A stretch of DNA of 64,000 bases from Pseudomonadota bacterium (GTDB lineage: Bacteria > Pseudomonadota > Alphaproteobacteria > Rickettsiales > SXRF01): contig CAUJIB010000007.1 of assembly GCA_963205245.1 (NCBI GenBank), forward strand, positions 446 to 64,445, given 5' to 3'. The first letter of the stretch is position 1. Each line of letters begins with the position of its first letter. The notes under the pieces were generated by a model. That model made no database searches and was not told where the DNA came from. It saw only the letters and a program-made list of their open reading frames with translations. A program made the position numbers and the translations under genes. Shown here piece after piece: positions 22,892 to 52,244 of the stretch.

Positions 22892-22912
22892 TTTTTTATT
22901 GGAAAGAAGTTA

Positions 22913-32605: not shown

Positions 32606-33871
32606 ATGAAGTATCTAAATTTGAGTGTCAGTAATTCTACTTTTGAAAATAAGAGCAAGAGAGTTACTCATTTGCATGAAGATGGAACATCAAATAAAAT
32701 AGATATATTTTATGAATTCGACAGAATTATCCCTTGGTCTGATAAAACTCTTTTGGATGCTCATCTGTTGTCTGTTTTAATGTATGCTTCAAAGCGTGGG
32801 AAAAATATAAAAGTTTACGGTACAATTTCTCATCAGTTGTTGCGTAATATAGAGGAATATTTATTAGCTTGGCATAGATGGCGGCCGGAGATTTATAAAG
32901 TTATAGAAATTATTCCTGAACGAATAGAAACAGTTATTAAAAGTCCTTCTCAGGAAAAAGCCATTGCTGCTTTTTCCGGTGGTGTTGATGCTACATTTAC
33001 TGCTTTGCGTCATACTAGAATGCTACCGGAATCTACACGTTATCCATTACGTGGTGTTGTAATGGTGCATGGGTTTGATGTGGATATATATAATCATAAT
33101 GGTTTTGCGCGTCTTATTAAGAGAGTGCAGCCATTATTGGATGATTTGAAGCTGGATTTACGTACAATCCGTACTAATAGCCGTGAATTAAAACTACAGG
33201 ATTGGGAAGATTCGCACGCGCTAGAATTGGCAGCATGTTTGCATATGTATTCAGATGAATTTAATTTTGGCCTTATCGGTAGTACGGATTCTTATGAGGC
33301 CTTAGTGTTGCCGTGGGGATCTAATGCAGTTACAGATCGTTTGATGTCAGGAAATAATTTTTCAATAATTCATGATGGTGCCGGATTTTGTAGGACAGAT
33401 AAAGTTGCAGAAATAGCAAAACACCCTCTTGCCTGTAAGGTATTAAAAGTTTGTTGGGCGGGCGCAGATCAAAGTGATAATTGTGGAAAATGCGAAAAAT
33501 GTGTACGGACTCACCTTAATTTTCTAGCTGTAGGAATGAAGGATAAACCTTCTTGTTTCCCTCGCGAACTTGATCTAAATCTTATAAGTAAAATGGAATT
33601 ACAGTCAGAGGGGCATTTTGCAGAAGTTGTAAGCATCGCAGAATATGCAAAAGCTCATAATATAATTGGTAAATGGGTAGATTTATTGAATGAAAGAATA
33701 AAAATATGGCATCCTATGGATGCTGATATATTAGAGAGAAAGAAAAAAGGTGGTTGCCTGAAAATTGTAATAGTGACAATATTGCAATGTGCGAATCTGG
33801 AAAAGCCGGCAAAAAAAATATGGCGACGGTTGCGTCGTGCCATGGTAAAGCTGAGCATAATACCGCAATAA
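32606..33871 (+). CDS. uncharacterised PP-loop ATP pyrophosphatase-superfamily protein, QueC-like Zn motif (paralogue A)
   Basis: SGGVDAT PP-loop at 32975-32995. C-x9-C-x2-C-x2-C (CWAGADQSDNCGKCEKC) at 33452-33502. Extra about 120-aa N-terminal domain and a basic tail. Confidence 0.6.
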   Translation: MKYLNLSVSNSTFENKSKRVTHLHEDGTSNKIDIFYEFDRIIPWSDKTLLDAHLLSVLMYASKRGKNIKVYGTISHQLLRNIEEYLLAWHRWRPEIYKVIEIIPERIETVIKSPSQEKAIAAFSGGVDATFTALRHTRMLPESTRYPLRGVVMVHGFDVDIYNHNGFARLIKRVQPLLDDLKLDLRTIRTNSRELKLQDWEDSHALELAACLHMYSDEFNFGLIGSTDSYEALVLPWGSNAVTDRLMSGNNFSIIHDGAGFCRTDKVAEIAKHPLACKVLKVCWAGADQSDNCGKCEKCVRTHLNFLAVGMKDKPSCFPRELDLNLISKMELQSEGHFAEVVSIAEYAKAHNIIGKWVDLLNERIKIWHPMDADILERKKKGGCLKIVIVTILQCANLEKPAKKIWRRLRRAMVKLSIIPQ

Positions 33872-33887
33872 TATAATCATTTAATTG

Positions 33888-33964
33888 GCACCCGTAGCTC
33901 AGCTGGATAGAGTGTTGCCCTCCGAAGGCAAAGGTCGGACGTTCGAATCGTCTCGGGTGCGCCA
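33888..33964 (+). tRNA. tRNA-Arg (anticodon CCG), encoded CCA
   Basis: Hand-folded: acceptor GCACCCG/CGGGUGC, anticodon stem UUGCC/GGCAA with loop CUCCGAA, T loop UUCGAAU. 77 nt. Confidence 0.9.
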
Positions 33965-34800
33965 TTCTTCGATATCGGTCGCTTTGGCATAGAGGTCAAA
34001 GAGCTTACGCAAGGAAAACAGCAACTCTCCGCCTTTCAGCGAGAGGTTAGAAAAGACAAACCCCAGAAGTCGGCGTTTTCCGCTATTGTTTGAACTGATG
34101 AACAATTCGTGGGCTTTTCTGCCGAGTTCGAGCGTATCGGCCACGGCATCGCGGAATCCGTCATCGGCCATGTGGTAGCTGTTCAGCTGGTTGGCGAGCT
34201 CAATCTGGCGGGCTTTGAATTTCTGGCGTTTCAGGTCGTGTTCCTGCTTGGACACCGCACCATCGAGCAGCAAGTCCATCAGCTTGTCGAGCTTACCCTG
34301 AATCCCTTCGCTTTCGCTCTGGAGCTTCTGAATCTGGCGTTTATGGAACACCTTCTCGGATTCACACGCCTAGCGCGCATAAGCGACCACATCCTAGAAT
34401 AAATCATCATCGGGCGACATGGATTTGAACACCTGCTCCACCTGCGCCATCACCTGTTCTTCACGCACCCAGAGCTTTTTAGCTGGATTCTCAGTACTCC
34501 AGCACATCAGGTAGGTATATTCCGCCCTGCGGCCATTGCCGTAGGTTTTCACCTTGGTGTCCGCCGTCACCACCTTGCCCGTGGTGGCGCAGGTGAGAAG
34601 CCCACGGAAGACATAATCTTTCTCGCCGTAAGCAAAGGGCTTTTTGTGCCAGCCAAACCGCACTGCTTGACACGCATCGTAGAGTTTTTTGGTAATCAGC
34701 GGTTCATAGACATGGGGGAAATTCCTCCCCTTACGGGCAACGAATGCGGCAAGGTCTGACAGGTGGTTTTTACCAGTCGCCCCACCTTGACGTAGGGCAG
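33965..34800 (-). pseudogene. large serine recombinase remnant (N-terminally truncated, frameshifted)
   Basis: Fragments in at least two frames: HVYEPLITKKLYDACQAV / KKPFAYGEKDYVFRGLLTCATTGKVV (recombinase and zinc-ribbon-like region), then a C-terminal coiled coil (33965-34351). No catalytic resolvase domain. Confidence 0.65.
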
Positions 34801-35326
34801 ATCATAGCGGCTTTCGCTCGCCCACGCGTCGAACAAAACGCAACAAAATAGGTGTCGTAAATGTCCTGATGGTGGGATGGTAATGTCATAAGCCGCTGCC
34901 GCTGTTTGGTTTTTTAACCACTATACAACATCCACGTGATTGCACCAGTATCTATGAAACTATCCGTGCAGTCACCCACCATACCCCCCACGGCTTAGGT
35001 ACGTCCTGCGATAATCCTATACGGGGGCGCAAGGCGCAGCATTTCGCTAGCGACAGAAAACATATTTGCATTTCGTTTCGGTTTTATTGGCGCAAGCGAT
35101 TGAAAATCGTGACGATGCTGAAAATCCGAACAGAAAAACATGCCGTGAAACATTTCGCAAACAGCTACAGGATAGGATGCTTGCATCCTTGTAAACTGAA
35201 AACTCAACTTTCAATTTTCAAGGATATTTTGTGCGGATTGTGTGAAGAAGTGGTTATATTGGCTTGCGAATTTAAAAGCATAAATCAACTAATGTTGCAA
35301 TTTTACGCGGATCGCCTTAAAAGCAA

Positions 35327-35340
35327 TTGATACACATCAA
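35327..35340 (+). promoter_or_regulatory. FNR/FixK box TTGATACACATCAA upstream of the fnr-like gene
   Basis: Perfect TTGAT-N4-ATCAA palindrome ending 19 nt before ATG 35359. Confidence 0.7.
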
Positions 35341-35358
35341 TCATTCCTATTAAGACTT

Positions 35359-36084
35359 ATGAAATCAACATTATCACCATTTTATTCGCTTAACGAACAG
35401 CCGCTTTTCCAAAACCAGCCAACGGTATTACATTCACTTATGCCGCATACCAAAATAAAGATTTACAATAAGGATGATGTTGTTTTGCACCACGGCGATG
35501 TGGCAGTAAGACTGTGGTTGGTGCTAAAAGGCTGGGTGAAGCTCACGCGTCAAACCCCAGATGGGAAAGAAAGTATAATCGGTCTGTGCACTGAGGGGGA
35601 TGTATTTGGTGAAGCGGCGTTGTTTCCACATGCAAATTATCCATATCACGCGCAAACACTGGCGGCGCACACGCAGCTTGCGGCAATTCCAGCGGATATT
35701 ATTCGTAAATTGATTGCAGAAAATGCAGCGTTTTCGGGTGTCGTCATGGAACTGCTAAATGAGCGAACATCACAGGCGCAGCTTAAGCTAGAGCAGATGA
35801 GTACCATGTCCGCATCACAGCGCTTGGGATGTTTTTTGCTGCGGTTGTGTCACACGCAGGCAAATGGATCTAAGACGCTGACGATTCCCGTAGAGAAGCA
35901 TATTTTGGCAGCTTATTTGGGCATGAAACCAGAAACGCTTTCGCGTAGTCAGCAGCAATTAAAACCGCTTGGGCTATCGGTGACAGGGCAAGATATCACT
36001 ATTAGTAATATTGAGAAACTCCGAGAGTTTGTATGTAATAGCTGTTCGGAATCTGGCAGTTGTGAAGCGGAAGCGACAGGCTAA
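35359..36084 (+). CDS. CRP/FNR-family transcription regulator (FixK/FnrL-like)
   Basis: cNMP-binding-like beta-roll. HTH with the E--SR recognition motif (PETLSRSQQ). C-terminal CNSCSESGSC cluster. Confidence 0.85.
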   Translation: MKSTLSPFYSLNEQPLFQNQPTVLHSLMPHTKIKIYNKDDVVLHHGDVAVRLWLVLKGWVKLTRQTPDGKESIIGLCTEGDVFGEAALFPHANYPYHAQTLAAHTQLAAIPADIIRKLIAENAAFSGVVMELLNERTSQAQLKLEQMSTMSASQRLGCFLLRLCHTQANGSKTLTIPVEKHILAAYLGMKPETLSRSQQQLKPLGLSVTGQDITISNIEKLREFVCNSCSESGSCEAEATG

Positions 36085-36503
36085 TCCTGCAACATAGTCT
36101 CTAACGCCTTTGTAAGTCTTCCCGTATTAGAAGGCGCACTAAACCACGCCAACATCAGTGGATATTCAATTTCAGCTACTACTTGTTTGGACACGGAAAT
36201 TGGCAATGAAGCCTGCGTCCACGAAATATCATTGGCGCTGCCTACCAATACAAGCTGACTAAAATCACCATGTTCCAAGGCATTAGTTAGGCGATCACGC
36301 AGATCATTTGCAAATGAGGATATATTGCTCCCATTCTCCAAGAGCGGTGACAGATGCCCATCCGATTGCTTCTGGAATAATGCCGCCATCCCCTCGCATG
36401 CTGCCAGCACCCATACATTTGACTTTGTGCGACAACCGCCACTCTTGCATTTGCCAGAGCAGGCTTTGTTTGTGGTGATGGGTGTGATGGTACAGCCAGA
36501 CAT
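36081..36503 (-). CDS. hypothetical protein, host-attachment-protein-like core with Cys-rich N-terminus
   Basis: VWVLAACEGMAALFQKQSDGHLSPL resembles the N-terminal strand of host-attachment family proteins. Assignment is by recollection only. Confidence 0.35.
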   Translation of the reverse strand: MSGCTITPITTNKACSGKCKSGGCRTKSNVWVLAACEGMAALFQKQSDGHLSPLLENGSNISSFANDLRDRLTNALEHGDFSQLVLVGSANDISWTQASLPISVSKQVVAEIEYPLMLAWFSAPSNTGRLTKALETMLQD

Positions 36504-36505
36504 GG

Positions 36506-36559
36506 CTAGAACTTATAACCAAAAAGTACCGCTAGTGCACCATAAACAATCTTTTTCAT
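36506..36559 (-). CDS. 17-codon hydrophobic small ORF (MKKIVYGALAVLFGYKF)
   Basis: AAGGAG Shine-Dalgarno 6 nt upstream. Its stop lies 2 nt before the next ATG, and an FNR-like box lies about 56 nt upstream. Confidence 0.25.
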   Translation of the reverse strand: MKKIVYGALAVLFGYKF

Positions 36560-36614
36560 AAGTTCTCCTTCATTTATTACTGCGCTGAAAATAGACGAGT
36601 AAACCCAGCAATCC

Positions 36615-36628
36615 TTGATTTGTGTCAA
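36615..36628. promoter_or_regulatory. FNR/FixK-like box TTGATTTGTGTCAA
   Basis: TTGAT-N4-GTCAA (one mismatch to consensus) in the divergent region between the small-ORF operon and the DUF465 pseudogene. Confidence 0.55.
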
Positions 36629-36683
36629 GCGCTCACTTCACCTGCGTGACTATGTTGGTTGGGAACAACAAAAGTAGTTATGT

Positions 36684-36923
36684 ATGCCACTTGAAAATCA
36701 CAGCCTGATCAATGAATTTCTAGAAATGCGCGAGCGCATTCACCAGATAAAAACATCTGACAATCATTTTGCGAGGTTATTTGCGGAATATGATTAGGTA
36801 GAACATTCTGTACACCGCATTGAGTCAGGTGCATAATCAGGCTCAGATGCGCTGGAGACATTGAAGAAACAGCGCCTTAGCCTTAAAGATGAGCTCTTTG
36901 GCTTGCTGATAAAAGCGGCGTAA
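36684..36923 (+). pseudogene. DUF465 (YdcH-like) gene with two in-frame stop codons
   Basis: MPLENHSLINEFLEMRERIHQIKTSDNHFARLFAEYD*VEHSVHRIESGA*SGSDALETLKKQRLSLKDELFGLL. TAG at 36795-36797 and TAA at 36834-36836, all in one frame. Confidence 0.65.
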
Positions 36924-36927
36924 GCCG

Positions 36928-37317
36928 CTACCACTCCATAGTTCGTGCCATGGTTTCGTGGTGCAGGCGTGAGCGGATTACCAAATCCTGCCATTGTTTG
37001 TGCTGCATTGCCTGCATTTGTAAGAGGTTTCCAGTAGCGTGGCCAATGCCAGAGGCTCGTTGCCAATCGTTCCATGCATCCAGCATCGTCTCAGGAGAAA
37101 TCCCAAGCGCTTTACTGTGTGCGTGTAATTTATCACGCCAGAAATTTTTGGTTTTTTCATCATGACCGTGGCTCATATGCGAGGTGGCTAGGCGCTGCGG
37201 ATGCTCCAACATGATCTTACGCCAATGCTCTAACAATTTTTCAGTTTCAGCATTTGAGGTATCAAATGCCGGAAGCTGATTGACATAATCATGCAGTAAC
37301 AAACCGATATTCTGCAC
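36928..37317 (-). CDS. hypothetical His-rich protein (GTG start), possibly the distal part of a split gene
   Basis: 129-aa ORF that opens 4 codons after an in-frame TAG and overlaps the upstream ORF by 29 nt. Confidence 0.3.
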   Translation of the reverse strand: MQNIGLLLHDYVNQLPAFDTSNAETEKLLEHWRKIMLEHPQRLATSHMSHGHDEKTKNFWRDKLHAHSKALGISPETMLDAWNDWQRASGIGHATGNLLQMQAMQHKQWQDLVIRSRLHHETMARTMEW

Positions 37318-37531
37318 CCGACCGCTGCACTATGGGGTCAAGTGTTTTCTCAATGGAGATGCGCGGAGCATCTGTCGATATACGGTGGCGCGGTGCGCTT
37401 GTATGTTCTTTTATTTTTAGATTTTCCAGCGCTTTATTTAGCAGAACTGGGTCTTCATGATGCATCAAATCATGCACGGCATGCGGTAAATATGTGAGCA
37501 AAAAGGGAATATCGTCACCATGCCATTTCAT
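37289..37531 (-). CDS. hypothetical protein coupled to ccoS (ATGA overlap)
   Basis: 80-aa ORF whose ATG overlaps the ccoS stop. Confidence 0.3.
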   Translation of the reverse strand: MKWHGDDIPFLLTYLPHAVHDLMHHEDPVLLNKALENLKIKEHTSAPRHRISTDAPRISIEKTLDPIVQRSGAEYRFVTA

Positions 37532-37683
37532 GCTACGTCCTCGTCTTCGTCATCACGCAACACCCGATGCGCTGCGCCGTCTAAATCCTCAAACTGCCCA
37601 TTTCTCATCGCCCAGAAGAACGCCACTAGCCCAGCCAATCCCAAGGTAAGCGCTATGGGAATGAGGTAGAGGAGTATGTTCAT
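37528..37683 (-). CDS. ccoS: cbb3 oxidase maturation protein CcoS/FixS
   Basis: Not in the ORF track; translated by hand as MNILLYLIPIALTLGLAGLVAFFWAMRNGQFEDLDGAAHRVLRDDEDEDVA. ATGA overlap with the ccoI stop. Confidence 0.85.
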   Translation of the reverse strand: MNILLYLIPIALTLGLAGLVAFFWAMRNGQFEDLDGAAHRVLRDDEDEDVA

Positions 37684-39821
37684 GACTTCCTCGCATTGAG
37701 TCGAATCGCATTAGCAATCACTAGCAGCGACGAGCTGGACATGGCAATGGCGGCGATCAGCGGCGTCACCATGCCAGCAACGGCCAATGGTATAGCAACC
37801 ACATTATATAGAATCGCCAGCAAAAAATTTTGTTTTACCAGTGTTTGTGAATATTTTGCGGTTTTCCAAGCGTTGATTACGGGCTGTAATCTATCACCCT
37901 GAAACACAATATCAGCCGCATTTTGTGTAATGTCCATCGCACTAGCAGGCGACATGGATATGGTGGCAGAAGAAAGTGATGGTGCGTCATTTAGCCCATC
38001 ACCGACCATTAGCACCTTTGCGCCGCTGGTTTTTAGCAACGCGATCTTTTCGGTTTTCTGCACAGGCGATAATGCGCCCTCAAATATCTCAATCCCCAGC
38101 TTTTTGGCAATGTCTTTTGTCACTTCCTGCCGATCACCTGAAAGCAGAATGGTTTTGATGCCAGCGGATTGCAAGGTAGTGATAATTTCTTTTGCATCGA
38201 CGCGTAGTTGATCGGCAAAGGTGAAGCGAATGGGCGACCTGTCATCTTCTGTGAGCCATAATTCCAGTGTATTTTCACCATCATCAGCCAGTTGCGTCGC
38301 CCAACTTCTTTTACCCAATTTAATGCCCTTGGCTTCAAGCCCGCAGCCTTGTACTTCATTTACCGTAAGTGGCAATAATTGGCCAGCATAGGCCTTGCTA
38401 ATTGCCTGTGATAGTGGATGTTTGCTATGTGCTGCGAGTGAGGCTGCTAGCTGTAATTGCTCACTGGAATGAGTAGAAGAGAGGGTTGGTTTGCCCAGTG
38501 TCAGCGTTCCTGTTTTATCAAACACAGCATAGGTGATTATCGCAAGTCGTTCCAACGCACTGCCGCTTTTAAGCAGAATACCGCTACGCATCAGCTTGCC
38601 ACTGGCGAGCACCTGCACCACCGGAACAGCAAGACCCAGCGCACATGGGCAGGTGATAATGAGCACGGTTGCGGCATAAAGCAATGCCACTTGCCACGCT
38701 ACGCTTCCAAACACCATCCAACCAATAAATGTTCCCGCCGCCAGAAAATGCACCACGGGCGTGTACCAGCCGGAAATTTTATCCGCGACAGTGACATATT
38801 TCGCCTGGGTTTGCTCAGCAGACTCCATGAGCTTGATGATTTCCGAAAGCAGCGAACGCTCGCCCGCCTTGGTAACGCGCATGGTGATGGGCGCGGTCAT
38901 ATTGATGGTTCCTGCAAATAACGCCTCACCCACATTCACCTTACGCGGCTGGCTTTCACCAGTGATTAGACTGGTATCAATTTCGGATGCGCCAGAAATT
39001 ACCACGCCATCCGCACCGATCTTCTCACCCGCTGCAACTAGTAGCACTATGCCTTCTTTTATCTCAGAAAGTGGGATTATTTCTTGTTTGCCACCTTCAT
39101 GTAAAACAGTCGCAAACCCCGTCATCATTTTCAGCAAATCATGGGCAGCAGAACGAGCGCGGCCACGAGCACGGGCTTCGAGATAACGCCCGATGAGCAG
39201 GAAAAACAGCAGCATCACGGCGGAATCAAAATAGGAATGTGAGCCAAAGGTGACAGTTTCAAACAAGCTCATAAGCGTGGCGAGAATAACCGCCACCGAA
39301 ATCGGTACGTCCATATTGGTTTTCCACGCACGCAAGACCTTCCACGCCGACCGGTAAAAAGGCATGCCGCAATAAGCAATGGCTGGAATCGCTATTGCCG
39401 CCTGCAACCAATGGAAAAATGTGCGTGTTGCCGCGCCCATTTCAACACTATCGCTTGTCCATAGCGGGATAGAAAATAACATCAGATTGCCACTGGCAAA
39501 GCCAGCTACAGCCAAGCAGCTCAGCAGGAATTTCTCTTCTTTCTTCTCGGCAGTTTCAGCGGTTGTTGGGTCAAACGGCACGGCACTGTAGCCCATGCCA
39601 TTAATTAGCTCTACCCACTTATCGCCTAGCTCCAAAGCACCGTTCCACGTTACGCGCAAACGTTTGGTAGAGAGGTTGAGGCGCGCTGTTTGGACTGCCT
39701 GCTGCTTCTTCAAACCATTTTCAATAATTGCCACGCAACTCGGGCAATGTATTCCATCCACCAGCAGATTTACGTTGTGTGTGCCGTCAGATTCAGTTGT
39801 GATGAAGGGTTTGGTGGTCAT
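37680..39821 (-). CDS. ccoI: copper-translocating P1B-type ATPase CcoI/FixI
   Basis: N-terminal HMA CPSC, TM CPC motif (ITCPCALG), DKTGT and GDGLND. Confidence 0.93.
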   Translation of the reverse strand: MTTKPFITTESDGTHNVNLLVDGIHCPSCVAIIENGLKKQQAVQTARLNLSTKRLRVTWNGALELGDKWVELINGMGYSAVPFDPTTAETAEKKEEKFLLSCLAVAGFASGNLMLFSIPLWTSDSVEMGAATRTFFHWLQAAIAIPAIAYCGMPFYRSAWKVLRAWKTNMDVPISVAVILATLMSLFETVTFGSHSYFDSAVMLLFFLLIGRYLEARARGRARSAAHDLLKMMTGFATVLHEGGKQEIIPLSEIKEGIVLLVAAGEKIGADGVVISGASEIDTSLITGESQPRKVNVGEALFAGTINMTAPITMRVTKAGERSLLSEIIKLMESAEQTQAKYVTVADKISGWYTPVVHFLAAGTFIGWMVFGSVAWQVALLYAATVLIITCPCALGLAVPVVQVLASGKLMRSGILLKSGSALERLAIITYAVFDKTGTLTLGKPTLSSTHSSEQLQLAASLAAHSKHPLSQAISKAYAGQLLPLTVNEVQGCGLEAKGIKLGKRSWATQLADDGENTLELWLTEDDRSPIRFTFADQLRVDAKEIITTLQSAGIKTILLSGDRQEVTKDIAKKLGIEIFEGALSPVQKTEKIALLKTSGAKVLMVGDGLNDAPSLSSATISMSPASAMDITQNAADIVFQGDRLQPVINAWKTAKYSQTLVKQNFLLAILYNVVAIPLAVAGMVTPLIAAIAMSSSSLLVIANAIRLNARKS

Positions 39822-40255
39822 TCTACGACAATACGTTTTCTTTGCTGATAATGCACGCCCTCATGCTCGGTATCTACCCGCACTTCCCACAAACCGTTTG
39901 CTGGAAAATATATAGTCGTTTCCGCGCCCTTTAACTCCACCGTAAAATCCATACCTTGTTGTGTCGGGCGGGTTATGGTGGCGGTGGTTTTTTCAGGAGC
40001 GATAGGCAGATTGTTTTTGTCGTGCAGCGCAAAATGTAGCGCACCATTTTTGTAATCAATAACGCCTTTCCACCCAAGTGACTCTTGCTTTTTCTCAGCG
40101 TCCACCACCTGATTATAAACAAGACCTTTTTCATATGGATGCTCGGTGACAACGCCGCTATGGGTGCGGATGGCGAGCGTGACCATCACCGCATTCACCG
40201 CTGCGACAAAGCCGAAAAACGCCACAAAATACCACCATACGCGCCTGCCAGTCAT
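39818..40255 (-). CDS. ccoH: CcoH/FixH cbb3 oxidase assembly protein
   Basis: Single N-terminal TM (WYFVAFFGFVAAVNAVMV) and size typical of FixH. 4-nt overlaps on both sides. Confidence 0.8.
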   Translation of the reverse strand: MTGRRVWWYFVAFFGFVAAVNAVMVTLAIRTHSGVVTEHPYEKGLVYNQVVDAEKKQESLGWKGVIDYKNGALHFALHDKNNLPIAPEKTTATITRPTQQGMDFTVELKGAETTIYFPANGLWEVRVDTEHEGVHYQQRKRIVVE

Positions 40256-41541
40256 CGTCCCTCACTTACAAAAATTGTGTCTTTGGCTGTAGTGATACTG
40301 CTGCTGGTTTCCATGAGTTGGAATGTTATTTCACGGCGATGATTGGTTTGTTTTTCAGCAGTGATGAACACGCGGAAATGCCCTACGGAATCGGCGAATA
40401 CGGGCAGATTATCTGCAGGAATATCGTTGCTCGCCTGCACGCGAATGGCAGCATTTTCGATGCCTTGTACGGTGAGCGCGTAATTCTTATCCTCATGATG
40501 TTTGTTGATGATCGTAATGTTGTAGCCATTACGCACAGAACCATCGGACAGCTTCACGAATAATGGATTGCGGTCGTGAATAACATTCATCTCCAGCGGT
40601 GAGCGCGTGAGCAAGCTATAGAGCATTAAACACCCGACCAGCGCGATAATTCCGCTATACCAAAAGGTGCGCGGACGGAAGGGGTTAAACTTTTCTTTGC
40701 TCTCCGTGTCATAGCGGATAAGGCCTTTGGGTAGACCAATTTTTCCCATCACATTATCACACGCATCGACGCATAATCCGCAGGCGATGCACTCCATCTG
40801 CAACCCTTCACGAATATCAATTCCCATCGGGCAGACGACGACACATGAGTCACAATCAATGCAATGGCCTTTACCTTCCCAACTATCGCCCGCTTTATGT
40901 TTTCCGCGTGGCTCACCGCGTGTTTCATCATAAGCTATAATCAGTGTATCTTTATCAAACATGGCGGATTGAAACCGCGCATAGGGGCACATATAGGTGC
41001 AGACCTGTTCACGTGCGAAACCCGCCATGAGGTAGGTAGAAAAAGTGAGTCCTAGAATCCAACCACCAACGCTCCACGGCACATCTAAATGTAAAATTTG
41101 ATCGAGTAATGTCGGGGCATCATTAAAATAAAACACCCACGCACCGCCAGTGCAGAGGCCGATGATGAGCCAGATGATGTGTGTGAGTCCCTTTTTGCGT
41201 ATTTTCTCTAATGTCCATTTTGATTCATCCAGTTTTTTGCGGGCATTTCTGTCGCCCTGCACAATGCGCTCTACCCACACGAATAAATCTGTCCAGACCG
41301 TCTGTGGGCAAGCATAGCCACACCATACGCGCCCAAATAGGGAAGTGACGAAGAATAATCCTACCGCCGCGAGAATTAAAATGCCGGTGATATAATAGAC
41401 TTCCTGCGGCCAGATTTCTATGCCGAAGAAATAGGCGCGTGTGTGATTGAGGTCGATAAGAATTGCTTGATCAGGGGATTGCCCGCCACGATGCCAACGC
41501 AGCCACGGCGCACCGTAATAAATAGCGAGCAATGTCACCAT
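40252..41541 (-). CDS. ccoG: CcoG/FixG cupric reductase/ferredoxin; 5-prime end frameshifted relative to the ancestral ATG at 41630
   Basis: CGYACPQ, CIDCDSCVVVCP and CIACGLCVDAC motifs. The conserved KIYPRRVWGRFRKLKW lies in frame upstream of Met-41541 but has no in-frame start codon. Confidence 0.85.
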   Translation of the reverse strand: MVTLLAIYYGAPWLRWHRGGQSPDQAILIDLNHTRAYFFGIEIWPQEVYYITGILILAAVGLFFVTSLFGRVWCGYACPQTVWTDLFVWVERIVQGDRNARKKLDESKWTLEKIRKKGLTHIIWLIIGLCTGGAWVFYFNDAPTLLDQILHLDVPWSVGGWILGLTFSTYLMAGFAREQVCTYMCPYARFQSAMFDKDTLIIAYDETRGEPRGKHKAGDSWEGKGHCIDCDSCVVVCPMGIDIREGLQMECIACGLCVDACDNVMGKIGLPKGLIRYDTESKEKFNPFRPRTFWYSGIIALVGCLMLYSLLTRSPLEMNVIHDRNPLFVKLSDGSVRNGYNITIINKHHEDKNYALTVQGIENAAIRVQASNDIPADNLPVFADSVGHFRVFITAEKQTNHRREITFQLMETSSSITTAKDTIFVSEGR

Positions 41542-41633
41542 CGACAGCCATTTCAGCTTACGAAACCTGCCCCATACACGCCGTGGATAGATTTTTTCTT
41601 GTTTTTTGAAGAGCTGTATAGGCGCTGCATTGA

Positions 41634-42518
41634 TTATTCCTTCGGTTTGTCGGCTTCGCCCCCACCGAGTGAATGTACATAAATACTCAGCTGCTTAATA
41701 GTCTCATCCGGCAGTCGCGTCTCCCAGGTTGGCATCACACCATGGCGCGGATTAGTCACTTGCTGCATGATGCTGGCCTTGTCACCGCCATAGAGCCAAA
41801 TCGCATCAGCCAAATTTGGCGCACCAACTTGTCGCCCTCCATGGCCGGTATCGCCATGGCACGAAGCACAATTCTGCTTGAAAATGGCTGCCCCTTGTTC
41901 ACTATCACCTTTGCCACTGGAGAGGCTAAGTACATGGTCGGCAACGCTTGAAATTTCATCGTGCTTCAGGATTTCACCAAACTCAGGCATTTGCGATGTA
42001 CGCGTATCTTCATGCGTAGAGCGAATACCAACTTTGATGGTGTGGTATATGGATTCAAGGTCGCCGCCCCACATCCAGTCATCGTCGTTTAGGTTAGGGT
42101 AGCCCCTTCCACCGGCTGCACCAGTGCCGTGGCACGCAGCGCAGTTTTCCTTGAACATGGTTTTGCCGCCTGCGATAGCGAAAGCGTAAAGTTCGGGGTC
42201 ATTCTGGATTTCTTCCAGGGAGTGCGATTTTATTTTTGCTGCAAGCTCTCCCCTCAGACTGGTTATTTCCGCCTGTTCTTCAGCCAGTTTTTTATATGAT
42301 GACCAGCCGAGCGTGCCTTTGGTATACCCTGAAAGTGTGGGCCATGCAGGGTACACTATCCAGTATCCTACCGCCCAGATACAGGTGATAGCAAACATAA
42401 CCAGCCACCAGCGCGGTGCCGGAATATTCAATTCTTTGATTCCATCCCACTCATGACCAGTGGTTTCCACGCCGGAATGCAGGTCTATATCTTTGTCTTT
42501 ATTTTTATGGTCAGCCAT
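41634..42518 (-). CDS. ccoP: cbb3-type cytochrome c oxidase subunit P (dihaem)
   Basis: Two CxxCH sites (CAACHG, CASCHG) and an N-terminal TM. Confidence 0.93.
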   Translation of the reverse strand: MADHKNKDKDIDLHSGVETTGHEWDGIKELNIPAPRWWLVMFAITCIWAVGYWIVYPAWPTLSGYTKGTLGWSSYKKLAEEQAEITSLRGELAAKIKSHSLEEIQNDPELYAFAIAGGKTMFKENCAACHGTGAAGGRGYPNLNDDDWMWGGDLESIYHTIKVGIRSTHEDTRTSQMPEFGEILKHDEISSVADHVLSLSSGKGDSEQGAAIFKQNCASCHGDTGHGGRQVGAPNLADAIWLYGGDKASIMQQVTNPRHGVMPTWETRLPDETIKQLSIYVHSLGGGEADKPKE

Positions 42519-42664
42519 TAATTTTCCTCCGACAGTGGGATATAAGCATGGGCTTGTAATTTTTCTTTCGCACCAGGGCGATATGCGCGGTACGCTATCA
42601 CTACAAATACGCTGAAGAAGAAAACCAGACCTATGGAAGGCGCATGTTCATATAAAAAATTCAT
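42518..42664 (-). CDS. ccoQ: cbb3-type cytochrome c oxidase subunit Q (FixQ)
   Basis: Not in the ORF track; 48 aa, [53 protein letters not shown] junctions with both ccoO and ccoP. Confidence 0.7.
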   Translation of the reverse strand: MNFLYEHAPSIGLVFFFSVFVVIAYRAYRPGAKEKLQAHAYIPLSEEN

Positions 42665-43455
42665 TATTTGCTCCCACTAGCGTCTTTTTCATTAAGATTA
42701 ATATCGTAATCTTTTATATCAGCAAGCGTGCCGAGCGTTTGCAGATAAGCAACCAGGGCATCCATTTCCGACACAAAGTTTTTCTGCCCATCGAAATCAC
42801 GGACATTCACTTTCTTGCCATAGCGGGCGTTTAAACCAGACGGGTCGCTGTCGGCATGTGCCTGTGCCATCGCGTCATTATAGGCGTTCTCGATCATATC
42901 ATCGGTATAAGGTACGCCAACAGTGCGGTATGCTTTCATAAGGTTTTTAATATCCAATAAATCTACCCCATGGTTTTTCATGAAGCTGTAAGATGGCATG
43001 ATGGATTCAGGCACTACATCCCTTGGGCGCGTAAGATGTGCTGTGTGCCATTCGTCGGAATATTTGCCGCCCACGCGCGCGAGATCAGGACCTGTACGCT
43101 TGCTGCCCCAGAGGAACGGGTGTTCATACATGCTTTCCGCCGCGAGGGAATAATGCCCGTAACGCTCTACCTCATCGCGTAATGGGCGTATCTGCTGGCT
43201 ATGGCATGCTGTGCAATTCTCGCGGATATAAATTTGTTCCCCAGTTAGCTCCAGTGGTGTCAGTGGGCGCATGCCGCTGACTTTTTCGATGGTGGTTTCT
43301 ATGCGAAACAGCGGTACGATTTCAACCAATCCGCCAATGGAAATCACTATGATAGAGAATATCAGCAGAAGTACGGAGCTTTTCTCAATTTTCTCGTGTT
43401 TTTCAAGCATTGCCAGCATCCTTATTATTGTGGGCATTTGCGCGGGATTCGACAT
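42664..43455 (-). CDS. ccoO: cbb3-type cytochrome c oxidase subunit O (monohaem)
   Basis: CTACHSQ haem site and FixO-like core. The true start is probably an internal Met ([13 protein letters not shown]). Confidence 0.93.
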
Positions 43456-44890
43456 TGTTTCCAGTGATGGTTTTATAGCAGTTATATATCATGATAAGCA
43501 TTCCTGATAGATAGAGAAGACCGCCAAGTGCGCGGATAATATAATATGGGTGCATAGCTTCCACAGTTTCCACAAAGGAGTATTCAAGGAAGCCCATAGA
43601 GTCGTAAGCGCGCCACATAAGCCCCTGCATGATACCAGCAACCCACATTGCGGTGATGTAGAGCACTATGCCTATAGTGGAGACCCACAGGTGGATATTC
43701 ACAAGGCGCATGGAATACAAGCCTTTTTTTCTCCATAGCACCGGCACCATATGATAGAGTGCTCCAAAGCTTATGAATGCCACCCAGCCAAGTGCGCCGG
43801 AATGCACGTGACCGATGGTCCAATCGGTGTAATGCGACAGTGAATTAACTTCCTTTATAGACATTAGTGGTCCTTCAAATGTACTCATGCCATAAAATGC
43901 CAGAGCGACAACCATGAAGCGCAGTACGGCATCGTCGCGTAGCTTGTTCCACGCGCCAGAAAGCGTCATTACGCCGTTAAGCATCCCGCCCCAGCTTGGC
44001 ATCCATAGCATGATAGAAAATGTCATGCCCAGAGTTTGCGCCCAGTCTGGCAGGGAGGTGTAATGCAGATGGTGTGGCCCTGCCCATATATATATGAATA
44101 TAAGTGACCAGAAATGTATTATCGAAAGGCGGTAGGAATATATAGGGCGGTTGGCACGTTTGGGGATAAAATAATACATGATGCCAAGGAATCCTGCGGT
44201 AAGGTAAAAGCCAACCGCATTATGCCCGTACCACCATTGGATGAGGGCGCTTTGGACGCCACCCCAGACCGATACTGATTTTGTGCTCAACAAAGATACG
44301 GGAACGCTTACGCCATTTACCAGATGCAGAACGGCAACTGTTGCGATAAATCCCAGAAAAAACCAGTTTGCCACGTAAATATGTGGTTCTTCGCGCCTGG
44401 CCAGTGTCATCATATAAATTAGCAGGTATGATACCCAGACTATGGTGAGCCACAAATCAGCGTACCATTCCGGTTCGGCGTATTCTTTGTTCTGCGTAAT
44501 GCCAAATATATAGCCTGTTGCCGCCATAATGATAAAAAGCTGGTAGCCCCAGAAGGTAAAATTCGCGAGCTTATCGTTCCATAAGCGCGTACGACAGGTG
44601 CGTTGTACAACAAAATAAGAGGTAGCAAAAAGCACGCTGCCGCCGAAGGCAAAAATCACTCCCGATGTGTGCACAGGGCGCAGGCGGCCAAAGCTGAAAT
44701 ACGGTTCAAAATTAAGATCGGGAAATGCTAATTGCAGAGCAATCACCAGCCCCACCAACATTCCCACCGTGCCCCAAAACAGTGCGGCAATGGTGAATTT
44801 CTTGACAATGTCGTCATTATAAATTGGCGCAGCCTTCGTTGGCACATAACGTGGATCGATTTCAACTTCACGTTCGTTTGGGGATTGCAT
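43403..44890 (-). CDS. ccoN: cbb3-type cytochrome c oxidase subunit N (catalytic)
   Basis: 12+ TM segments with haem-copper oxidase His ligands ([24 protein letters not shown]). Confidence 0.95.
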
Positions 44891-44894
44891 GTTT

Positions 44895-45542
44895 TTACCT
44901 CATTACTTTTGCGGCCAACACTAACAGTGCCAGCCCGTTAAGCACTATACCAAAGCGGCCAATTCCGCGCATCATTTCCTGCCATTTCACTGCCAGCATA
45001 GCAGCCCCGCCGCTTGCCACCAGCAAGGCCGGAATCGTCCCCAACACAAATAACCACATCGCAAACATTCCTACGAGTGGGTTGGTGAATGTTGCAGCCA
45101 TCATCAGCGCGGCATAAATCAATCCGCAGGGCATAAAACTCATCAGCACACCACGTAAAAAAGCATTTTTAGGCGTATAGGCAAGCAATGCATGTTGATT
45201 AGGTACAATAGCACTGAGCAGGAATAATCCACCCGCCATCACCATCATCGTCGCTGAAAGTGCTGGCCAATACGATGCTGCCGCAAGTTGCTTGGAAAGT
45301 AGTGCGACAGAAAAACCAAGTGCTCCATAGGTTAAAAGTCGTCCCAGATGATACTGCCATTGCGCTGCCGCGCTCATACGCTTGCCACACCCACCGCCAC
45401 ATGCTGACTGGCACGCCACCACCGGCCCGCACATGACAAGGCAATGGGTGAGGCTGCCTGTCAGTCCTCCTAGGAAAAATACGGCAAACAAGCCCCCATG
45501 CTGGGAAAATGCCACTGAACAATGCACTAATAATGCTTCCAT
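44895..45542 (-). CDS. DsbD_2/TauE-like membrane protein upstream of ccoN
   Basis: [16 protein letters not shown] motif, 6 TM, 4 nt upstream of ccoN. Start set at ATG 45542 rather than the tracked TTG 45602, which lies inside the FNR box. Confidence 0.6.
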
Positions 45543-45588
45543 CAACAATCCTTTGGGAAGCACTCTATAATTAAGATGTTTCAGTGCC

Positions 45589-45602
45589 TTGATTTGAATC
45601 AA
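45589..45602 (-). promoter_or_regulatory. FNR/FixK box TTGATTTGAATCAA upstream of the cco operon
   Basis: Perfect TTGAT-N4-ATCAA, centred about 53 nt upstream of ATG 45542. Confidence 0.75.
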
Positions 45603-45626
45603 GGGTATTAGATCAATATCCTCAAT

Positions 45627-46240
45627 TTACAAGCTGAAAGCTGAATAATTTCCTATACTCATCCCGCCAGCTATTTCACCCGCAGGCAGTGCATGGTGAT
45701 ATTCGGTGAGCAGCGATAGCAGCTTTTGCTTATATTCCGTATCGTCATTGCCATTAAGCTGAAGACCTTTGGTTTCAAGCACCAACATCCGATCCCCATT
45801 TATACACGCAACAAAATCGGGATAGATTTTATTGCGTTGCCAGCCTTGTAGTGAATAATCTTGCCGCGCAACCATGCGGTGCCACTAGGCGACTGCCTCG
45901 TCATCTGCTAGGTACAGCGCGAAATCCTTTTCGAGCGAATTAAATTCTTTTTCAAAGACAAACTAGAACAGATTGTTCTGTATCAGCGTGTTATCTTTCC
46001 GTATCAGTTTGCGATCCTGCTTGCTGGCGAGTTGTTTCAATTCCCGCGCAATCTCAAAATTCAGGCGTTCATTGTCGTTTGTCACGAGGGGGAAGGTGAC
46101 TCGCCCCTTTGCCAGTTTATCACGGAAAATAGCCTCTGATTGCTCATGCACCACCTGTTTGAGATATCGTTTGATGCTATCAATCAGGAAAAGGCGGTTG
46201 TTAAACAGCGTATCATCCTGCTGCCCTTTTCCGATGCTTA
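45627..46240 (-). pseudogene. C-terminal remnant of a Res-type (type III restriction / DEAD-box helicase family) protein with in-frame stops
   Basis: A single frame reads ...KGRVTFPLVTNDNERLNFEIAREL...NNLF*FVFEKEFNSLEKDFALYLADDEAVA*WHRMVARQDYSLQGWQRNKIYPDFV... TAG at 45963-45965 and 45885-45887. The N-terminal bulk is missing. Confidence 0.6.
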
Positions 46241-46371
46241 GGAAACTCTATGACAGCCGCCCGCTGTTCGGGTAGGGTTCTAACGGCGTCGATAGCCGCG
46301 CGCCATAAAACATTATGATTTTATATATTAGTTATACAGAATAATTTCTGTACAGAGTCCTTTGTCGTGCG

Positions 46372-47061
46372 TCATCCCTGTGCAGGCGGTAATATTTTCT
46401 GTTTTTGGTTACCCAATAAATCATGAAGCAGATGCAGCATGGTTGTTACGCCTAAAACAGGCACAGCAAGATTAAGTAAAGGAATTGTAGAGAAAAAGCT
46501 AATCGCTACACCTATTAATAACACAGTGTTTCCAGCTTTTTTCTGTAGCTGCAAGGCTTGGGATTTGGACACCCTTCTTCCTGCTGCCATACGAAAAAAT
46601 TGTGTGCCTAGTAAATAGCCATTTAATCCATAATAAATAATAATCCCAATCATTGGGATTATATAAAGCGGCAGGAAAACTATATTAAGTCCGATAGCCT
46701 TTAATGAAAACATTATATCACTTGTTATAGTAGGCCAGAAAGGTGGCTGGGCTGTTGGTAGTTGAGTATATTCTTCGCGCTCAATTATTTCAGCAATTTT
46801 ATCATCAAAAAAACTGATTAATATGGGATAAAGCAATGGAAAAAAGAACCATCCTATCATCACCCCGCCAAAAGTACTAAGTATACCGATAAAAAAGCCT
46901 TCTGCACCTGAAACCGAAATATAGCTGGATATAATTTCTGAGATAGCAAAGGTGAGTATTCCCCATCCGACTACATAGGCAAGCATACATAATAAGAAAA
47001 TTTTTATAATGTCAGGGAGTAATAAATTATGAAGTGCTTTGGTGAAATTTGAAAGTAGCAT
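46372..47061 (-). CDS. EI24/CysZ-like membrane protein
   Basis: 4-5 TM segments and an IPLLNLAVPVLG-type C-terminal motif. Confidence 0.55.
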   Translation of the reverse strand: MLLSNFTKALHNLLLPDIIKIFLLCMLAYVVGWGILTFAISEIISSYISVSGAEGFFIGILSTFGGVMIGWFFFPLLYPILISFFDDKIAEIIEREEYTQLPTAQPPFWPTITSDIMFSLKAIGLNIVFLPLYIIPMIGIIIYYGLNGYLLGTQFFRMAAGRRVSKSQALQLQKKAGNTVLLIGVAISFFSTIPLLNLAVPVLGVTTMLHLLHDLLGNQKQKILPPAQG

Positions 47062-47137: not shown

Positions 47138-47602
47138 TTATTTTATGTGCAGAACACAAATAAGGGTAAATAATCTTCTGGCTGTTGGGAAATCCACAAC
47201 AATTCTGTCTTTTAATATATCTTGTAGCATCTGTGAACCTTCGTTATGTATGCCGCGCCTGCCCATATCAATGGCTTCTATTTTACTGGGGTTTGCTGAA
47301 TTAAGGGCGGTTTGATAACTATCAAAAATTATAAAATAATCACGGATGATACCACGCAGTGGAGTAATAGAAAGTATTACCTTTGAATGCTTTTCTTCTT
47401 GTGGGGACTGAACATCCAGCACCAGCTTACCTTCCTCAATAGCCAAGTGGATATTATAAGGGCCGCTTTTCATACAGCGCGGTTCAAAATTATTTTCATC
47501 AAGTAGGTCAGCTATTGCTACATTCCGTTCATGCTCTGCCTCTGGCGAGCGTTTTTTCATGCTGCTTTCATCCAGTGAAATCTTTGCTATTTTCTCACTC
47601 AT
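47138..47602 (-). CDS. UPF0262 family protein
   Basis: EAEHERNVAIADLLDENNFEP...GPYNIHLAIEEGKLVLDV. Overlaps hisD by 4 nt, as is typical in alphaproteobacteria. Confidence 0.8.
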   Translation of the reverse strand: MSEKIAKISLDESSMKKRSPEAEHERNVAIADLLDENNFEPRCMKSGPYNIHLAIEEGKLVLDVQSPQEEKHSKVILSITPLRGIIRDYFIIFDSYQTALNSANPSKIEAIDMGRRGIHNEGSQMLQDILKDRIVVDFPTARRLFTLICVLHIK

Positions 47603-50370: not shown

Positions 50371-51681
50371 CTAGGCTGCTTCTGTCAAAGAAAATGGTCG
50401 GGTTGGACGTTCACTAATTCGCTCAATTCGTGCGCCACAGGCAGATAATTTTTCCTCTAACCGCTCATAGCCCCTATCCAGATGGTAAACGCGGTGTATA
50501 ACTGTTTCCCCGCGCGCAGCAAGGGCAGCAATTACCAAGGATAAGGAAGCCCTGAGGTCAGTCGCCATTACCTCTGCGCCAACTAATTCTTCTTCACCCC
50601 TAATCATTGCGCTTGAACCATGCACCACAATTTTTGCTCCCATCCGCGTAAGCTCAGGCACATGCATATAGCGATTCTCAAAAATCGTTTCGGTAATCAT
50701 GGACGCTCCATCAGCCACGCATAGTAATGCCATCATTTGTGCCTGCATATCTGTAGGGAATCCCGGATATGGTTGAGTTATAATGTCAATACACTGAATT
50801 CGTTCTTTGGCTATCACCCGCACACCACGCTCAGTTTCATACATTTCTACGCCAGCATCAGTGAATTTTTCTGCAACCGCCTGCATATGTTCCATGCGGG
50901 CACCAATCAGTTCTACATCTCCACCTGTAATAGCGGCAGCTGCGGCAAAAGAGCCAGCTTCAATCCGGTCTGGCACCACGCTATAATCGCAACCATGAAG
51001 TTTTTCTACACCTGTGATACGAATAGTATCCGTACCAATTCCTTCAATTTTTGCTCCCATTTTCTGCAGGCAATAGGCAAGATCACAAACCTCCGGTTCA
51101 CGCGCTGCATTACGCAGTACGGTTACACCTTCGGCAAGGCTTGCCGCCATTAGGATATTTTCGGTAGCACCAACAGAAATTTTTTCAAAATTAATTTCAG
51201 ATCCCTTTAGTCTGCCATGAGTATGGGCATGAACATAACCTTCTGCTAGTTCAATATGAGCACCCATTAACTCTAGTGCTTTTAAGTGTAAATCAATAGG
51301 GCGTGTACCGATTGCACAGCCGCCGGGCAAGGACACTTTTGCTTGCCCAAACCGTGCAAGAAGCGCGCCTAGAACTAGTACTGATGCCCGCATGGTGCGT
51401 ACCAAATCATAAGGCGCAGTAAAGTTGTTAATATACTGAGAAGAAAGCGACATATTCTTGCCAAATTCCTGCGCAGATGCAGAAAAAGAAATATTGGTTC
51501 CATGTTGTGCTAGCAAATTTGCCATGGTCACAATATCAGCAAGATAAGGAACATTGGAAAGCTTTAATGTATCTTCTGTAAGAAGGCTGGCAGCCATCAG
51601 CGGCAAAGCAGCATTCTTCGCGCCGGAAATCTGTATTTTTCCAGTAAGCCTGTTACCGCCAATAATCCTGATTTTATCCAT
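50371..51681 (-). CDS. murA: UDP-N-acetylglucosamine 1-carboxyvinyltransferase
   Basis: [35 protein letters not shown]-terminus. 436 aa. Confidence 0.95.
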
Positions 51682-52244
51682 TACGCTATCTTCTCTATCC
51701 GTGGTAAGGTTACACCTTTTTGTCCTTGGTATTTTCCTTTGCGGTCACCATAAGAAACTTCGCAAACAGAATCACCTTTCAAGAATAAAAACTGGCACGC
51801 GCCCTCATTGGCATAAATTTTTGCCGGAAGCGGGGTGGTGTTGGAGAATTCTAGTGTTACATGTCCTTCCCATTCCGGCTCAAGTGGAGTAACATTAACT
51901 ATAATCCCACAACGTGCATAAGTTGATTTGCCGACACAAACCACCAAAACATCACGCGGGATACGAAAATATTCCACTGTGCGGGCAAGAGCAAAGCTGT
52001 TCGGAGGGATGATACATACATCGCTTTTCCTATCAACAAAACCTTTAGGTGAAAATTATTTAGGGTCAACAATTGCCGAATCAATATTGGTAAAAATCTT
52101 AAATTCGTCTGATACCCGTGCATCATAGCCATAGGAAGATACCCCATAAGAGATAACTCCTTCACGGGTAAGGTTCTCTACAAACGGTTCAATCATTCCT
52201 TTTTTTGCCTGTTCCCTAATCCAGCTATCCGACATTATCCCCAT
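51681..52244 (-). pseudogene. dcd: dCTP deaminase interrupted by a single in-frame TAA (52056-52058)
   Basis: The same frame reads ...[86 protein letters not shown]... Both halves are strongly Dcd-like. Confidence 0.85.

Follow-up and report, generated by a model that had tools for sequence, protein, structure and literature searches.

A G+C-rich cbb3 oxidase cluster next to tRNA-Arg(CCG) in a low-G+C alphaproteobacterium: boundaries, relatives and probable origin

Where does a complete cbb3-type cytochrome oxidase cluster come from when it begins at the last base of a tRNA gene and stands out in composition from the surrounding genome? The locus in question occupies about 12.3 kb of a 64,000-nt stretch of DNA, here called the window (positions 446 to 64,445 of contig CAUJIB010000007.1, assembly GCA_963205245.1, Rickettsiales lineage SXRF01), and all coordinates below are those of the window unless a fetched locus, designated by an L number, is named. 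An original prediction made from the letters alone described the block as a self-contained island acquired laterally at tRNA-Arg(CCG), implying a low-oxygen respiratory capability new to the lineage. The compositional foreignness of the block, its self-contained gene content and the tRNA integration junction are confirmed, while the capability itself is not foreign: cbb3 oxidase is a normal feature of the host lineage, and the module is not from a distant donor. The reading favored here, which we consider probable, is acquisition of the cbb3 module from a relative within the lineage, followed by decay.

The compositional block and its two edges

The G+C content is 48.3% between 33965 and 46305 versus 39.4% in the rest of the window, where 270 equal-sized segments are all at or below 40.8%. 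A two-breakpoint maximum-likelihood segmentation given no prior coordinates places the block at 33887-46304, which is the predicted block plus the G+C-rich tRNA, and thus recovers both the break at the tRNA CCA end and the return at 46305; the spot counts of 60-nt lines on which the prediction relied (31/60 at 38881 and 21/60 at 49681) are exact. The G+C and third-codon-position G+C (GC3) checks that it named beforehand give a strong break, with GC3 values of 0.45-0.67 for every open reading frame (ORF) of the block and 0.18-0.43 for every ORF outside, two disjoint ranges that locate the shift at synonymous sites. Pseudogene and unassigned DNA in the block is equally G+C-rich (47-53%, versus 29% in host non-coding DNA), and since the GC3 excess runs through non-functional DNA, codon selection is ruled out as its cause. 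The G+C contents of the three codon positions of intact block genes (0.54/0.42/0.50, versus 0.51/0.38/0.32 in host genes) match the equilibrium values expected of a genome of about 49% G+C. Codon usage in the block is nearest to that of the cbb3 cluster of L092/93, the flanks of the L094 cluster and the housekeeping genes of L007 (GC3 0.48-0.51), and far from that of the host. The composition steps coincide with the outer edges of the two pseudogenes that flank the block.

The left edge is the 3′ CCA end of the tRNA-Arg(CCG) gene, which ARAGORN places at 33888..33964 on the plus strand. Abutting it on the minus strand is the broken serine recombinase of the original prediction, a large serine recombinase pseudogene (33965..34735) that retains roughly residues 224-490 of about 500 amino acids (aa) as a single-frame fragment with two in-frame stops, and whose frame continues into the complement of the tRNA to a stop at 33899. 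By tblastn the fragment pairs with residues ~246-482 of a recombinase family protein (499 aa) from a Legionella plasmid and also matches one on a Neochlamydia plasmid, and a full-length comparison with proteins annotated as members of that family yields E = 1e-25. A zinc ribbon of the large serine recombinase type is present with a weak Zn_ribbon_recom match (18 bits, below cutoff), and the catalytic N-terminal ~220 residues, including the PF00239 resolvase domain, are absent. Homologs of 63-88% identity carry PF07508, and the N-terminally intact homolog P0264 has PF00239 and is 81% identical over the shared part.

A homologous recombinase also abuts tRNA-Arg(ACG) in L099 and L100 and tRNA-Arg(TCT) in L101 (GCA_016307145.1), convergent with the tRNA as in the window (window 33899-34735, minus strand; L099 4015-5060; L101 10001-11035). 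The window and L099 share 79% nucleotide identity across the whole tRNA, ending at the tRNA 5′ end. In the window, L099 and L101 the recombinase frame ends with ...ATCG(A/G)AGAA followed, at the CCA end, by TGGCG..., the tryptophan codon TGG being complementary to CCA. Judged by their C-termini, eight or more family members among proteins P0262-P0278 end in the tRNA-complement peptide EW-R...DSN; a different tail, W-(R/L)-x-L-V-D-x-(L/I)-R-T, is conserved in three members and may mark the unintegrated form. Since homologous recombinases cross into tRNA-Arg 3′ ends at one and the same base, the left edge represents site-specific integration, and 33964/33965 is an attachment site (att)-type junction of an element family that uses the extreme 3′ end of tRNA-Arg genes. 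The predicted role of the tRNA 3′ end as an island integration site is thus borne out by the same junction base at other tRNA-Arg isoacceptors, and the conserved junction points to a serine recombinase family associated with tRNA 3′ ends. The tRNA-adjacent copies whose N-termini could be examined all lack the catalytic domain, and the family was not found in IMG/VR. In L099 (3556-4920), an N-terminal fragment of a SNF2/ResIII helicase runs in frame into the middle part of the recombinase (…IDEAHKLR joined to IGECIGTAPIGYLN…), a scar left by deletion in a further remnant of this element family.

The right edge is formed by a Res-like DEAD/DEAH helicase-nuclease pseudogene (45627..46305, minus strand), of which the C-terminal ~210 aa remain as a single-frame fragment with three in-frame stops, in agreement with the broken Res-like gene originally described. 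Its truncation point is the edge of the block at 46305. The fragment matches Proteus at 45% and a Chryseobacterium plasmid helicase adjoining a DNA methyltransferase at 39% identity (tblastn), with a weak HSDR_N match; it contains no helicase core, no Mod gene is present in the window, and the other recombinase-bearing loci have no counterpart of it. A deletion scar is the best reading of this edge, a border that cuts through a gene being consistent with loss of the distal att.

Relatives of the cluster and its origin

The host lineage can be followed through HisD, encoded in the flank of the block, whose next-best matches reach at most 79% identity and include several labelled 'MAG: Rickettsiales bacterium' (MAG, metagenome-assembled genome). 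The CcoN protein of the block has matches of 86-90% identity, and L010 and L011 (GCA_964530085.1) show the gene order DsbD_2-ccoNOQP-ccoGHIS...140-aa gene-Crp/Fnr. Clusters of the same architecture are present in MAGs of the host lineage with HisD proteins 79% and 68% identical to that of the host, and cbb3 oxidase is therefore, contrary to what had been supposed, not unusual in this lineage labelled Rickettsiales. A CcoN (MEQ1705897.1) and a HisD 79% identical to the host's (MEQ1705508.1) have neighbouring accession numbers, from which they would belong to the same MAG, GCA_040080715.1; this assembly and GCA_021733565.1 are the sources of L092/L093. One 163-kb contig of GCA_033762715.1 carries a CcoN (L094) together with a HisD 68% identical to the host's, and in L107 hisD, hisG and aroA (58-64% identical) lie ~4-9 kb from a cbb3 cluster. 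In trees of CcoN, CcoO, CcoP and CcoG, the window falls with L010, L011, L092/93 and L094 in a clade of 98-100% bootstrap support, and Micavibrio-like loci and other sampled Alphaproteobacteria fall outside it. A scan of genome contigs for CcoN gave, among the matches listed, a best identity of 77% (Micavibrio and other Alphaproteobacteria), and these are outgroups rather than donor candidates. As the clade includes host-lineage MAGs at this level of support, cbb3 oxidase is no novelty to the lineage.

Set against housekeeping genes, the cbb3 phylogeny is congruent at the level of the clade and divided within it: the CcoN tree excludes the window from the group of L011, L092/93 and L094 (95%), in conflict with the housekeeping relationships, and CcoG agrees with them (96%). 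Protein identities are similarly uneven. DsbD_2 is 86-88% identical to that of the near relative L092/93 (HisD 79%) versus 61% to that of the distant L107 (HisD 64%), and CcoG follows the same gradient (93-95% versus 76%). CcoN, by comparison, is 86-88% identical to both, and CcoP is 75% identical to L092/93 versus 80% to L107; the CcoN of the near relative is 91-94% identical to those of more distant genomes and 88% identical to that of the window. These mosaic identities do not uniformly track species distance and argue against simple vertical descent. The original prediction had taken relatives with the same cluster at this locus, and a phylogeny congruent with the species tree, as evidence against acquisition; relatives do carry the cluster, but at other loci, and the gene trees within the clade conflict.

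The genomic context points in the same direction as to locus. The order dcd-aroA-HD-hisG-hisD-UPF0262 is common to the window, L003 (GCA_025464625.1), L005 and L007 (GCA_963205195.1), and the latter three continue with infA-maf-comM after UPF0262, with no EI24, tRNA or cbb3 gene there (in the tblastx synteny comparisons only long blocks were used, many short matches being spurious). The related cbb3 clusters occupy at least six different contexts, and the context differs in every related genome examined. The L010 and L011 clusters sit among core genes in DNA of ~55% G+C with no compositional step, and no G+C excess of the cluster is seen in L010, L011, L092, L102 or L107. An apparent low-G+C flank in L092 (0.39 versus 0.49) was rejected as an artefact of an 820-nt run of N, the true flank GC3 being 0.43-0.47, which leaves the L092 cluster with next to no excess.

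Several further observations concern the surroundings of these clusters. The genes that flank the block in the window, an EI24/CysZ-like gene (46372-47061) and a 421-aa ORF without Pfam match (32606-33871), have host-like composition, and neither stands beside hisD-UPF0262 in the three nearest relatives, so the host locus itself has been rearranged. In L107 (1-6287 / 9962-20224) the cbb3 genes lie ~3.7 kb from the dcd-aroA-hisG-hisD block on its dcd side, opposite to the arrangement in the window, and a junction shared by the two is thereby ruled out. In five related genomes a tRNA gene (for Arg-TCT, Met, Gln or Thr) lies within 0.2-2 kb of the cbb3 cluster and faces it with its 3′ end (L092 4677-4942, L093 464-654, L094 20827-21088, L102 7867-9941 and L107 8106-9962). 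In L102 and L107, where the tRNAs lie 1.8-2 kb upstream, the intervening DNA contains pilin-like and other ORFs, no integrase remnants and unremarkable composition. A general association of tRNA genes with cbb3 clusters is only suggestive.

Of the explanations for these data, an assembly or binning chimera, in which a block from another organism was fused to the host sequence in silico, for instance by way of the conserved tRNA, is the one we find hardest to credit. The source is a metagenome-assembled contig, and the left junction lies exactly at a tRNA, a conserved sequence able to bridge assembly graphs. However, the left junction is 100% identical in the Logan contigs L097 (24225-35291) and L098 (32351-37984) and the right junction in the Logan contig L001 (41935-48586), which are independent run-level assemblies from two different runs; nothing at the right junction, neither a repeat nor a conserved element, could mislead an assembler, both flanks share one composition, and the recombinase/tRNA junction is a natural one that recurs in unrelated genomes. 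Almost as improbable is the stronger form of the original prediction, in which a capability foreign to a Rickettsiales-like lineage arrived from a distant donor. Such an origin would account for the strong G+C and GC3 break beside a tRNA and mobile-element debris, and within Rickettsiales proper cbb3 oxidase is described from intramitochondrial Midichloria and not from non-intramitochondrial ones (bioRxiv 10.1101/2022.05.16.490919), but each protein of the cluster has its closest homologs in host-lineage MAGs, where the gene order is identical, the clade that leaves the Micavibrio-like and other sampled alphaproteobacterial loci outside is 100% supported, the MAG with the 79%-identical HisD carries the same cluster, and the tetranucleotide signature of the block is not foreign.

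A more serious competitor, though still an unlikely one, is that the cluster is native, was inherited vertically and has been relocated, with unrelated mobile elements inserted and decayed on either side and a G+C excess that arose from, for example, codon selection in a highly expressed respiratory operon or biased gene conversion. Several results speak for this possibility or weigh against acquisition from a relative. Clusters of this type are typical for the lineage and make up a single clade, and both CcoG and DsbD_2 group the window with its near relative L092/93 (96%), as vertical descent predicts. The L094 cluster shows a milder G+C excess over its own flanks (0.53 versus 0.46). The tetranucleotide check, also named in advance, went the other way from the G+C checks: after normalization for G+C the signature has no break, and in a z-score test the block is indistinguishable from the host (block-host r = 0.54, host-host r = 0.56), which fits a closely related donor and also a native origin. 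In the other loci that carry this recombinase the neighbouring cargo varies and does not include cbb3 (L099 has Fic, DUF6880 and an SNF2 fragment, and L101 has a phospholipase-like gene), so that co-arrival of the cluster and the recombinase is drawn from their contiguous composition. No att direct repeat or second copy of the tRNA 3′ end was found at the right edge or in the window against a shuffle null, and only one end of the element is therefore documented. A tyrosine integrase adjoins the homologous recombinase on the Legionella plasmid, and either enzyme may perform the tRNA integration. No empty tRNA-Arg(CCG)/EI24 site was found in the searched databases, where the nearest HisD is 79% identical; no sampled donor is closer than 90% (CcoN) or 78% (DNA); and the trees are neighbour-joining trees with few genomes in which HisD and CcoN are paired. 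Against a native origin, the GC3 excess of ~0.2 runs unbroken through pseudogenes and unassigned DNA, beyond the reach of selection, and composition steps exactly at both pseudogene edges. Over 52 kb the GC3 of all other conserved host genes stays below 0.45, the CcoN and CcoP identities do not track species distance, five related clusters show no excess of their own, and at ~80% protein identity the synonymous sites should already match the bias of the host.

Acquisition from within the lineage thus remains the preferred explanation. An integrative element would have entered the genome at the tRNA-Arg(CCG) 3′ end, with its terminal large serine recombinase reading across the att site into the tRNA complement, and this element, or a composite island built on it, would have brought the complete cbb3 module together with its regulator. 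We infer both the arrival of cbb3 with the element and the identity of the donor, which would belong to the same uncultured alphaproteobacterial lineage but have a higher G+C content (~48-50%). Deletions and point mutations would afterwards have removed the catalytic half of the recombinase, most of the Res-like restriction gene, the distal att and OmpW, and the function of DUF465. A bolder generalization, which is speculative and on balance doubtful, is that the whole cbb3 module is a recurrently exchanged cassette that lands beside tRNA genes and has been moved at least once by undescribed large serine recombinase elements, which target the extreme 3′ ends of tRNA-Arg genes of any anticodon and have the recombinase tail replaced by a tRNA-complement peptide on integration. 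On the favored reading, the case shows a low-G+C, possibly streamlining bacterium gaining or regaining a microaerobic module from its relatives, with the useful core kept while the vehicle decays. It also carries a caution, in that a strong G+C island beside a tRNA implies neither a distant donor nor a trait new to the lineage.

Gene content, regulation and decay of the block

The gene content given in the original prediction, namely an fnr/fixK-type regulator, a DsbD_2-like gene with ccoNOQP, and ccoGHIS, is confirmed by Pfam and NCBIfam. The first gene of the operon encodes a DsbD_2-family membrane protein (44895..45542, PF13386), which holds the same leading position in all loci of the clade, and all genes of the oxidase set lie on the minus strand. 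It is followed by ccoN, encoding the catalytic subunit (43403..44890; TIGR00780, 735 bits, cutoff 583, spanning positions 3-470 of the 474 in the model), ccoO for the mono-haem subunit (42664..43410; TIGR00781, 335 bits, cutoff 201) and ccoP for the di-haem subunit (41634..42518; TIGR00782, 340 bits, cutoff 180). Between ccoO and ccoP lies ccoQ (42518..42664, 48 aa), which has no NCBIfam match and is recognized by PF05545 FixQ on the identical gene in L001/L002. Directly downstream of ccoNOQP are ccoG (40252..41631, 459 aa from the upstream start, as in the gene call of L002; TIGR02745, 528 bits, cutoff 317), ccoH (39818..40255, PF05751 FixH), ccoI for a copper-translocating P1B-type ATPase (37680..39821, Pfam; TIGR01511, 518 bits, cutoff 397) and ccoS (37528..37683, PF03597; TIGR00847, 87 bits, cutoff 28). 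The core cco genes are full length; ccoN, ccoO, ccoP, ccoG and ccoS pass the NCBIfam equivalog cutoffs over their full length, and ccoI passes a copper P-type ATPase subfamily model. With these full-length equivalog matches and a conserved promoter box, the cbb3 genes appear functional.

The Crp/Fnr-family regulator (35359..36084, plus strand) consists of the Pfam domains cNMP_binding and HTH_Crp_2. Its recognition helix reads ETLSRSQ in five of six aligned clade sequences and ETFSRSQ in L102, so that the E--SR motif is kept; E--SR is the recognition motif for TTGAT half-sites in FNR/FixK-regulated operons. The regulator passes no curated FNR, FixK or FnrL model, its best NCBIfam match being FtrB-like (109 against a cutoff of 211), and in the alignment of clade homologs it lacks the N-terminal cysteine cluster of FNR proper. 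It has instead a C-terminal C-x2-C-x5-C motif, which is C-x2-C-x5-7-C across the clade and occurs as FVC(N/G)SCSES-G-x-C in all six aligned members, and this motif may bind an oxygen-labile iron-sulfur cluster. The Fnr of Bacillus subtilis reportedly has a C-terminal cysteine arrangement likewise.

The three FNR boxes of the original prediction are present in the block, two of them perfect and one nearly so. A perfect box, TTGATACACATCAA (35327..35340, plus strand), lies 19 nt upstream of the start codon of the regulator, a second perfect box, TTGATTTGAATCAA (45589..45602, plus strand), lies upstream of DsbD_2-ccoN, and an FNR-like box with one mismatch, TTGATTTGTGTCAA (36615..36628, plus strand), lies upstream of the 140-aa gene. 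An FNR box is found at the same position upstream of DsbD_2 in L010, L092, L093, L094 and L102. Perfect TTGAT-N4-ATCAA boxes number three in the window, versus 0.23 expected by chance; two are those of the block, and the third, TTGATAACTATCAA (47312-47325), lies outside it within the UPF0262 coding region and could be a chance occurrence or a host target of the regulator. By analogy with established FNR/FixK-regulated cbb3 operons, from which both the regulatory logic and the oxidase activity are inferred, the regulator would bind these boxes at low oxygen, probably sensing O2 through its C-terminal cysteine motif, would then activate DsbD_2-ccoNOQP from the conserved box, and would probably control its own gene and the 140-aa gene as well. 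Copper supply and assembly of the oxidase would fall to CcoI, CcoG, CcoH and CcoS, the outcome being high-affinity microaerobic respiration, for which the electron supply (bc1 complex and cytochrome c) would have to come from the genome outside the window.

The accessory part of the block is in various states of decay. The conserved 140-aa protein (36081..36503, minus strand) has a weak Pfam baeRF_family12 match and is 38-66% identical by tblastn to its counterparts in L010, L011 and L094; in related clusters its gene is placed between OmpW and the regulator, and the OmpW gene of those clusters is missing here. A DUF465 pseudogene (36684..36914, plus strand) with two in-frame stops and one gap is 74-80% identical by tblastn to the DUF465 of L010/L011. 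The split gene at 36928..37531 (minus strand), with ORFs of 80 and 129 aa, corresponds by tblastn to a single 202-aa gene after ccoS in L010; the split recurs in the independent assembly L098, and either a pseudogene or an assembly indel error would explain it. The same caveat applies to the host dcd gene for dCTP deaminase (51681-52244, minus strand), which is apparently split into an N-terminal part of 62 aa and a C-terminal part of 98 aa in different frames, is one 187-aa gene in relatives, and is a host pseudogene or an assembly indel error. Between the recombinase remnant and the region upstream of the regulator lies unassigned DNA of ~52% G+C (34736..35050), which has no homolog in any fetched locus.

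The flanks of the block contain genes of the tricarboxylic acid (TCA) cycle and of histidine, aromatic amino-acid, polysaccharide and pilus functions, and do not look like those of a reduced Rickettsiales genome; nothing obvious marks the host as an obligate endosymbiont. A gene cluster for polysaccharide biosynthesis and export (13471-24397) encodes an epimerase, glycosyltransferases, a GNVR chain-length protein, a Wza-like exporter, a Wzy-like polymerase and a pyruvyl transferase, and within it the G+C content is mildly raised (0.44) at 21-24 kb. The stretch 56343-64000 is AT-rich (32-36% G+C) and holds an ABC-3C system C-terminal domain 6 protein (56343-57338) and several large ORFs without Pfam match; it may be a defence island of opposite compositional sign.

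Comparison with known systems

The rhizobial fixNOQP-fixGHIS-fixK modules on symbiosis plasmids and islands are mobile cbb3 sets with a Crp/Fnr activator. The block resembles them in its complete set of cbb3 structural and assembly genes, a Crp/Fnr-type activator, TTGAT-N4-ATCAA boxes, an association with mobile DNA and a role, here predicted, in microaerobic respiration. It differs in that DsbD_2 leads the operon and no fixLJ is present in the block, in a regulator whose cysteine motif is C-terminal and which stays below the cutoffs of the FixK, FnrL and Fnr equivalog models, and in its vehicle, a decayed tRNA-Arg element in a low-G+C uncultured lineage. Another organism labelled Rickettsiales, 'Candidatus Midichloria mitochondrii', also has a cbb3 oxidase (Sassera et al. 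2011, as cited in PMC4623255), which has been interpreted as an adaptation to low oxygen (bioRxiv 10.1101/2022.05.16.490919; PMC4623255). On the side of differences, the present host has TCA-cycle, histidine, aromatic amino-acid and polysaccharide genes.

The closest counterparts are the clusters of the lineage itself (L010, L011, L092/L093, L094, L102 and L107), which share the order DsbD_2-ccoNOQP-ccoGHIS-...-140-aa gene-Crp/Fnr with core Cco proteins 69-95% identical and lower identities for CcoH, DsbD_2, the 140-aa protein and the regulator. In contrast to the block, the clusters of L010, L011, L102 and L107 match their flanks in composition, lie among core genes and retain, in combinations that vary, intact copies of OmpW, DUF465 and the 202-aa gene, and none of the lineage clusters has recombinase or Res debris or is located at tRNA-Arg(CCG).

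Islands linked to tRNA genes are textbook examples of mobile DNA. For tyrosine integrases, tRNA attB sites are the common organization, in which element DNA rebuilds the tRNA 3′ end and genes sometimes cross attP, while the serine-integrase prophages of the same study used other sites (PMC8092301). The tyrosine-integrase islands and prophages and the block have in common insertion at a tRNA 3′ end, an adjacent recombinase, deviating composition and a C-terminus altered across att (PMC8092301); here, however, the recombinase is a large serine recombinase pseudogene and the distal att repeat is missing. A serine recombinase at a tRNA 3′ end is less usual. Taken together, mobile cbb3 modules, tRNA islands and cbb3 oxidase in an organism labelled Rickettsiales are all already known, and the more unusual element of this locus is the serine recombinase family that reads into tRNA-Arg 3′ ends. 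With the catalytic domain absent from the tRNA-adjacent copies examined, its activity is putative; a demonstration that an intact member is active would hold some interest for the study of mobile elements and for integration tools.

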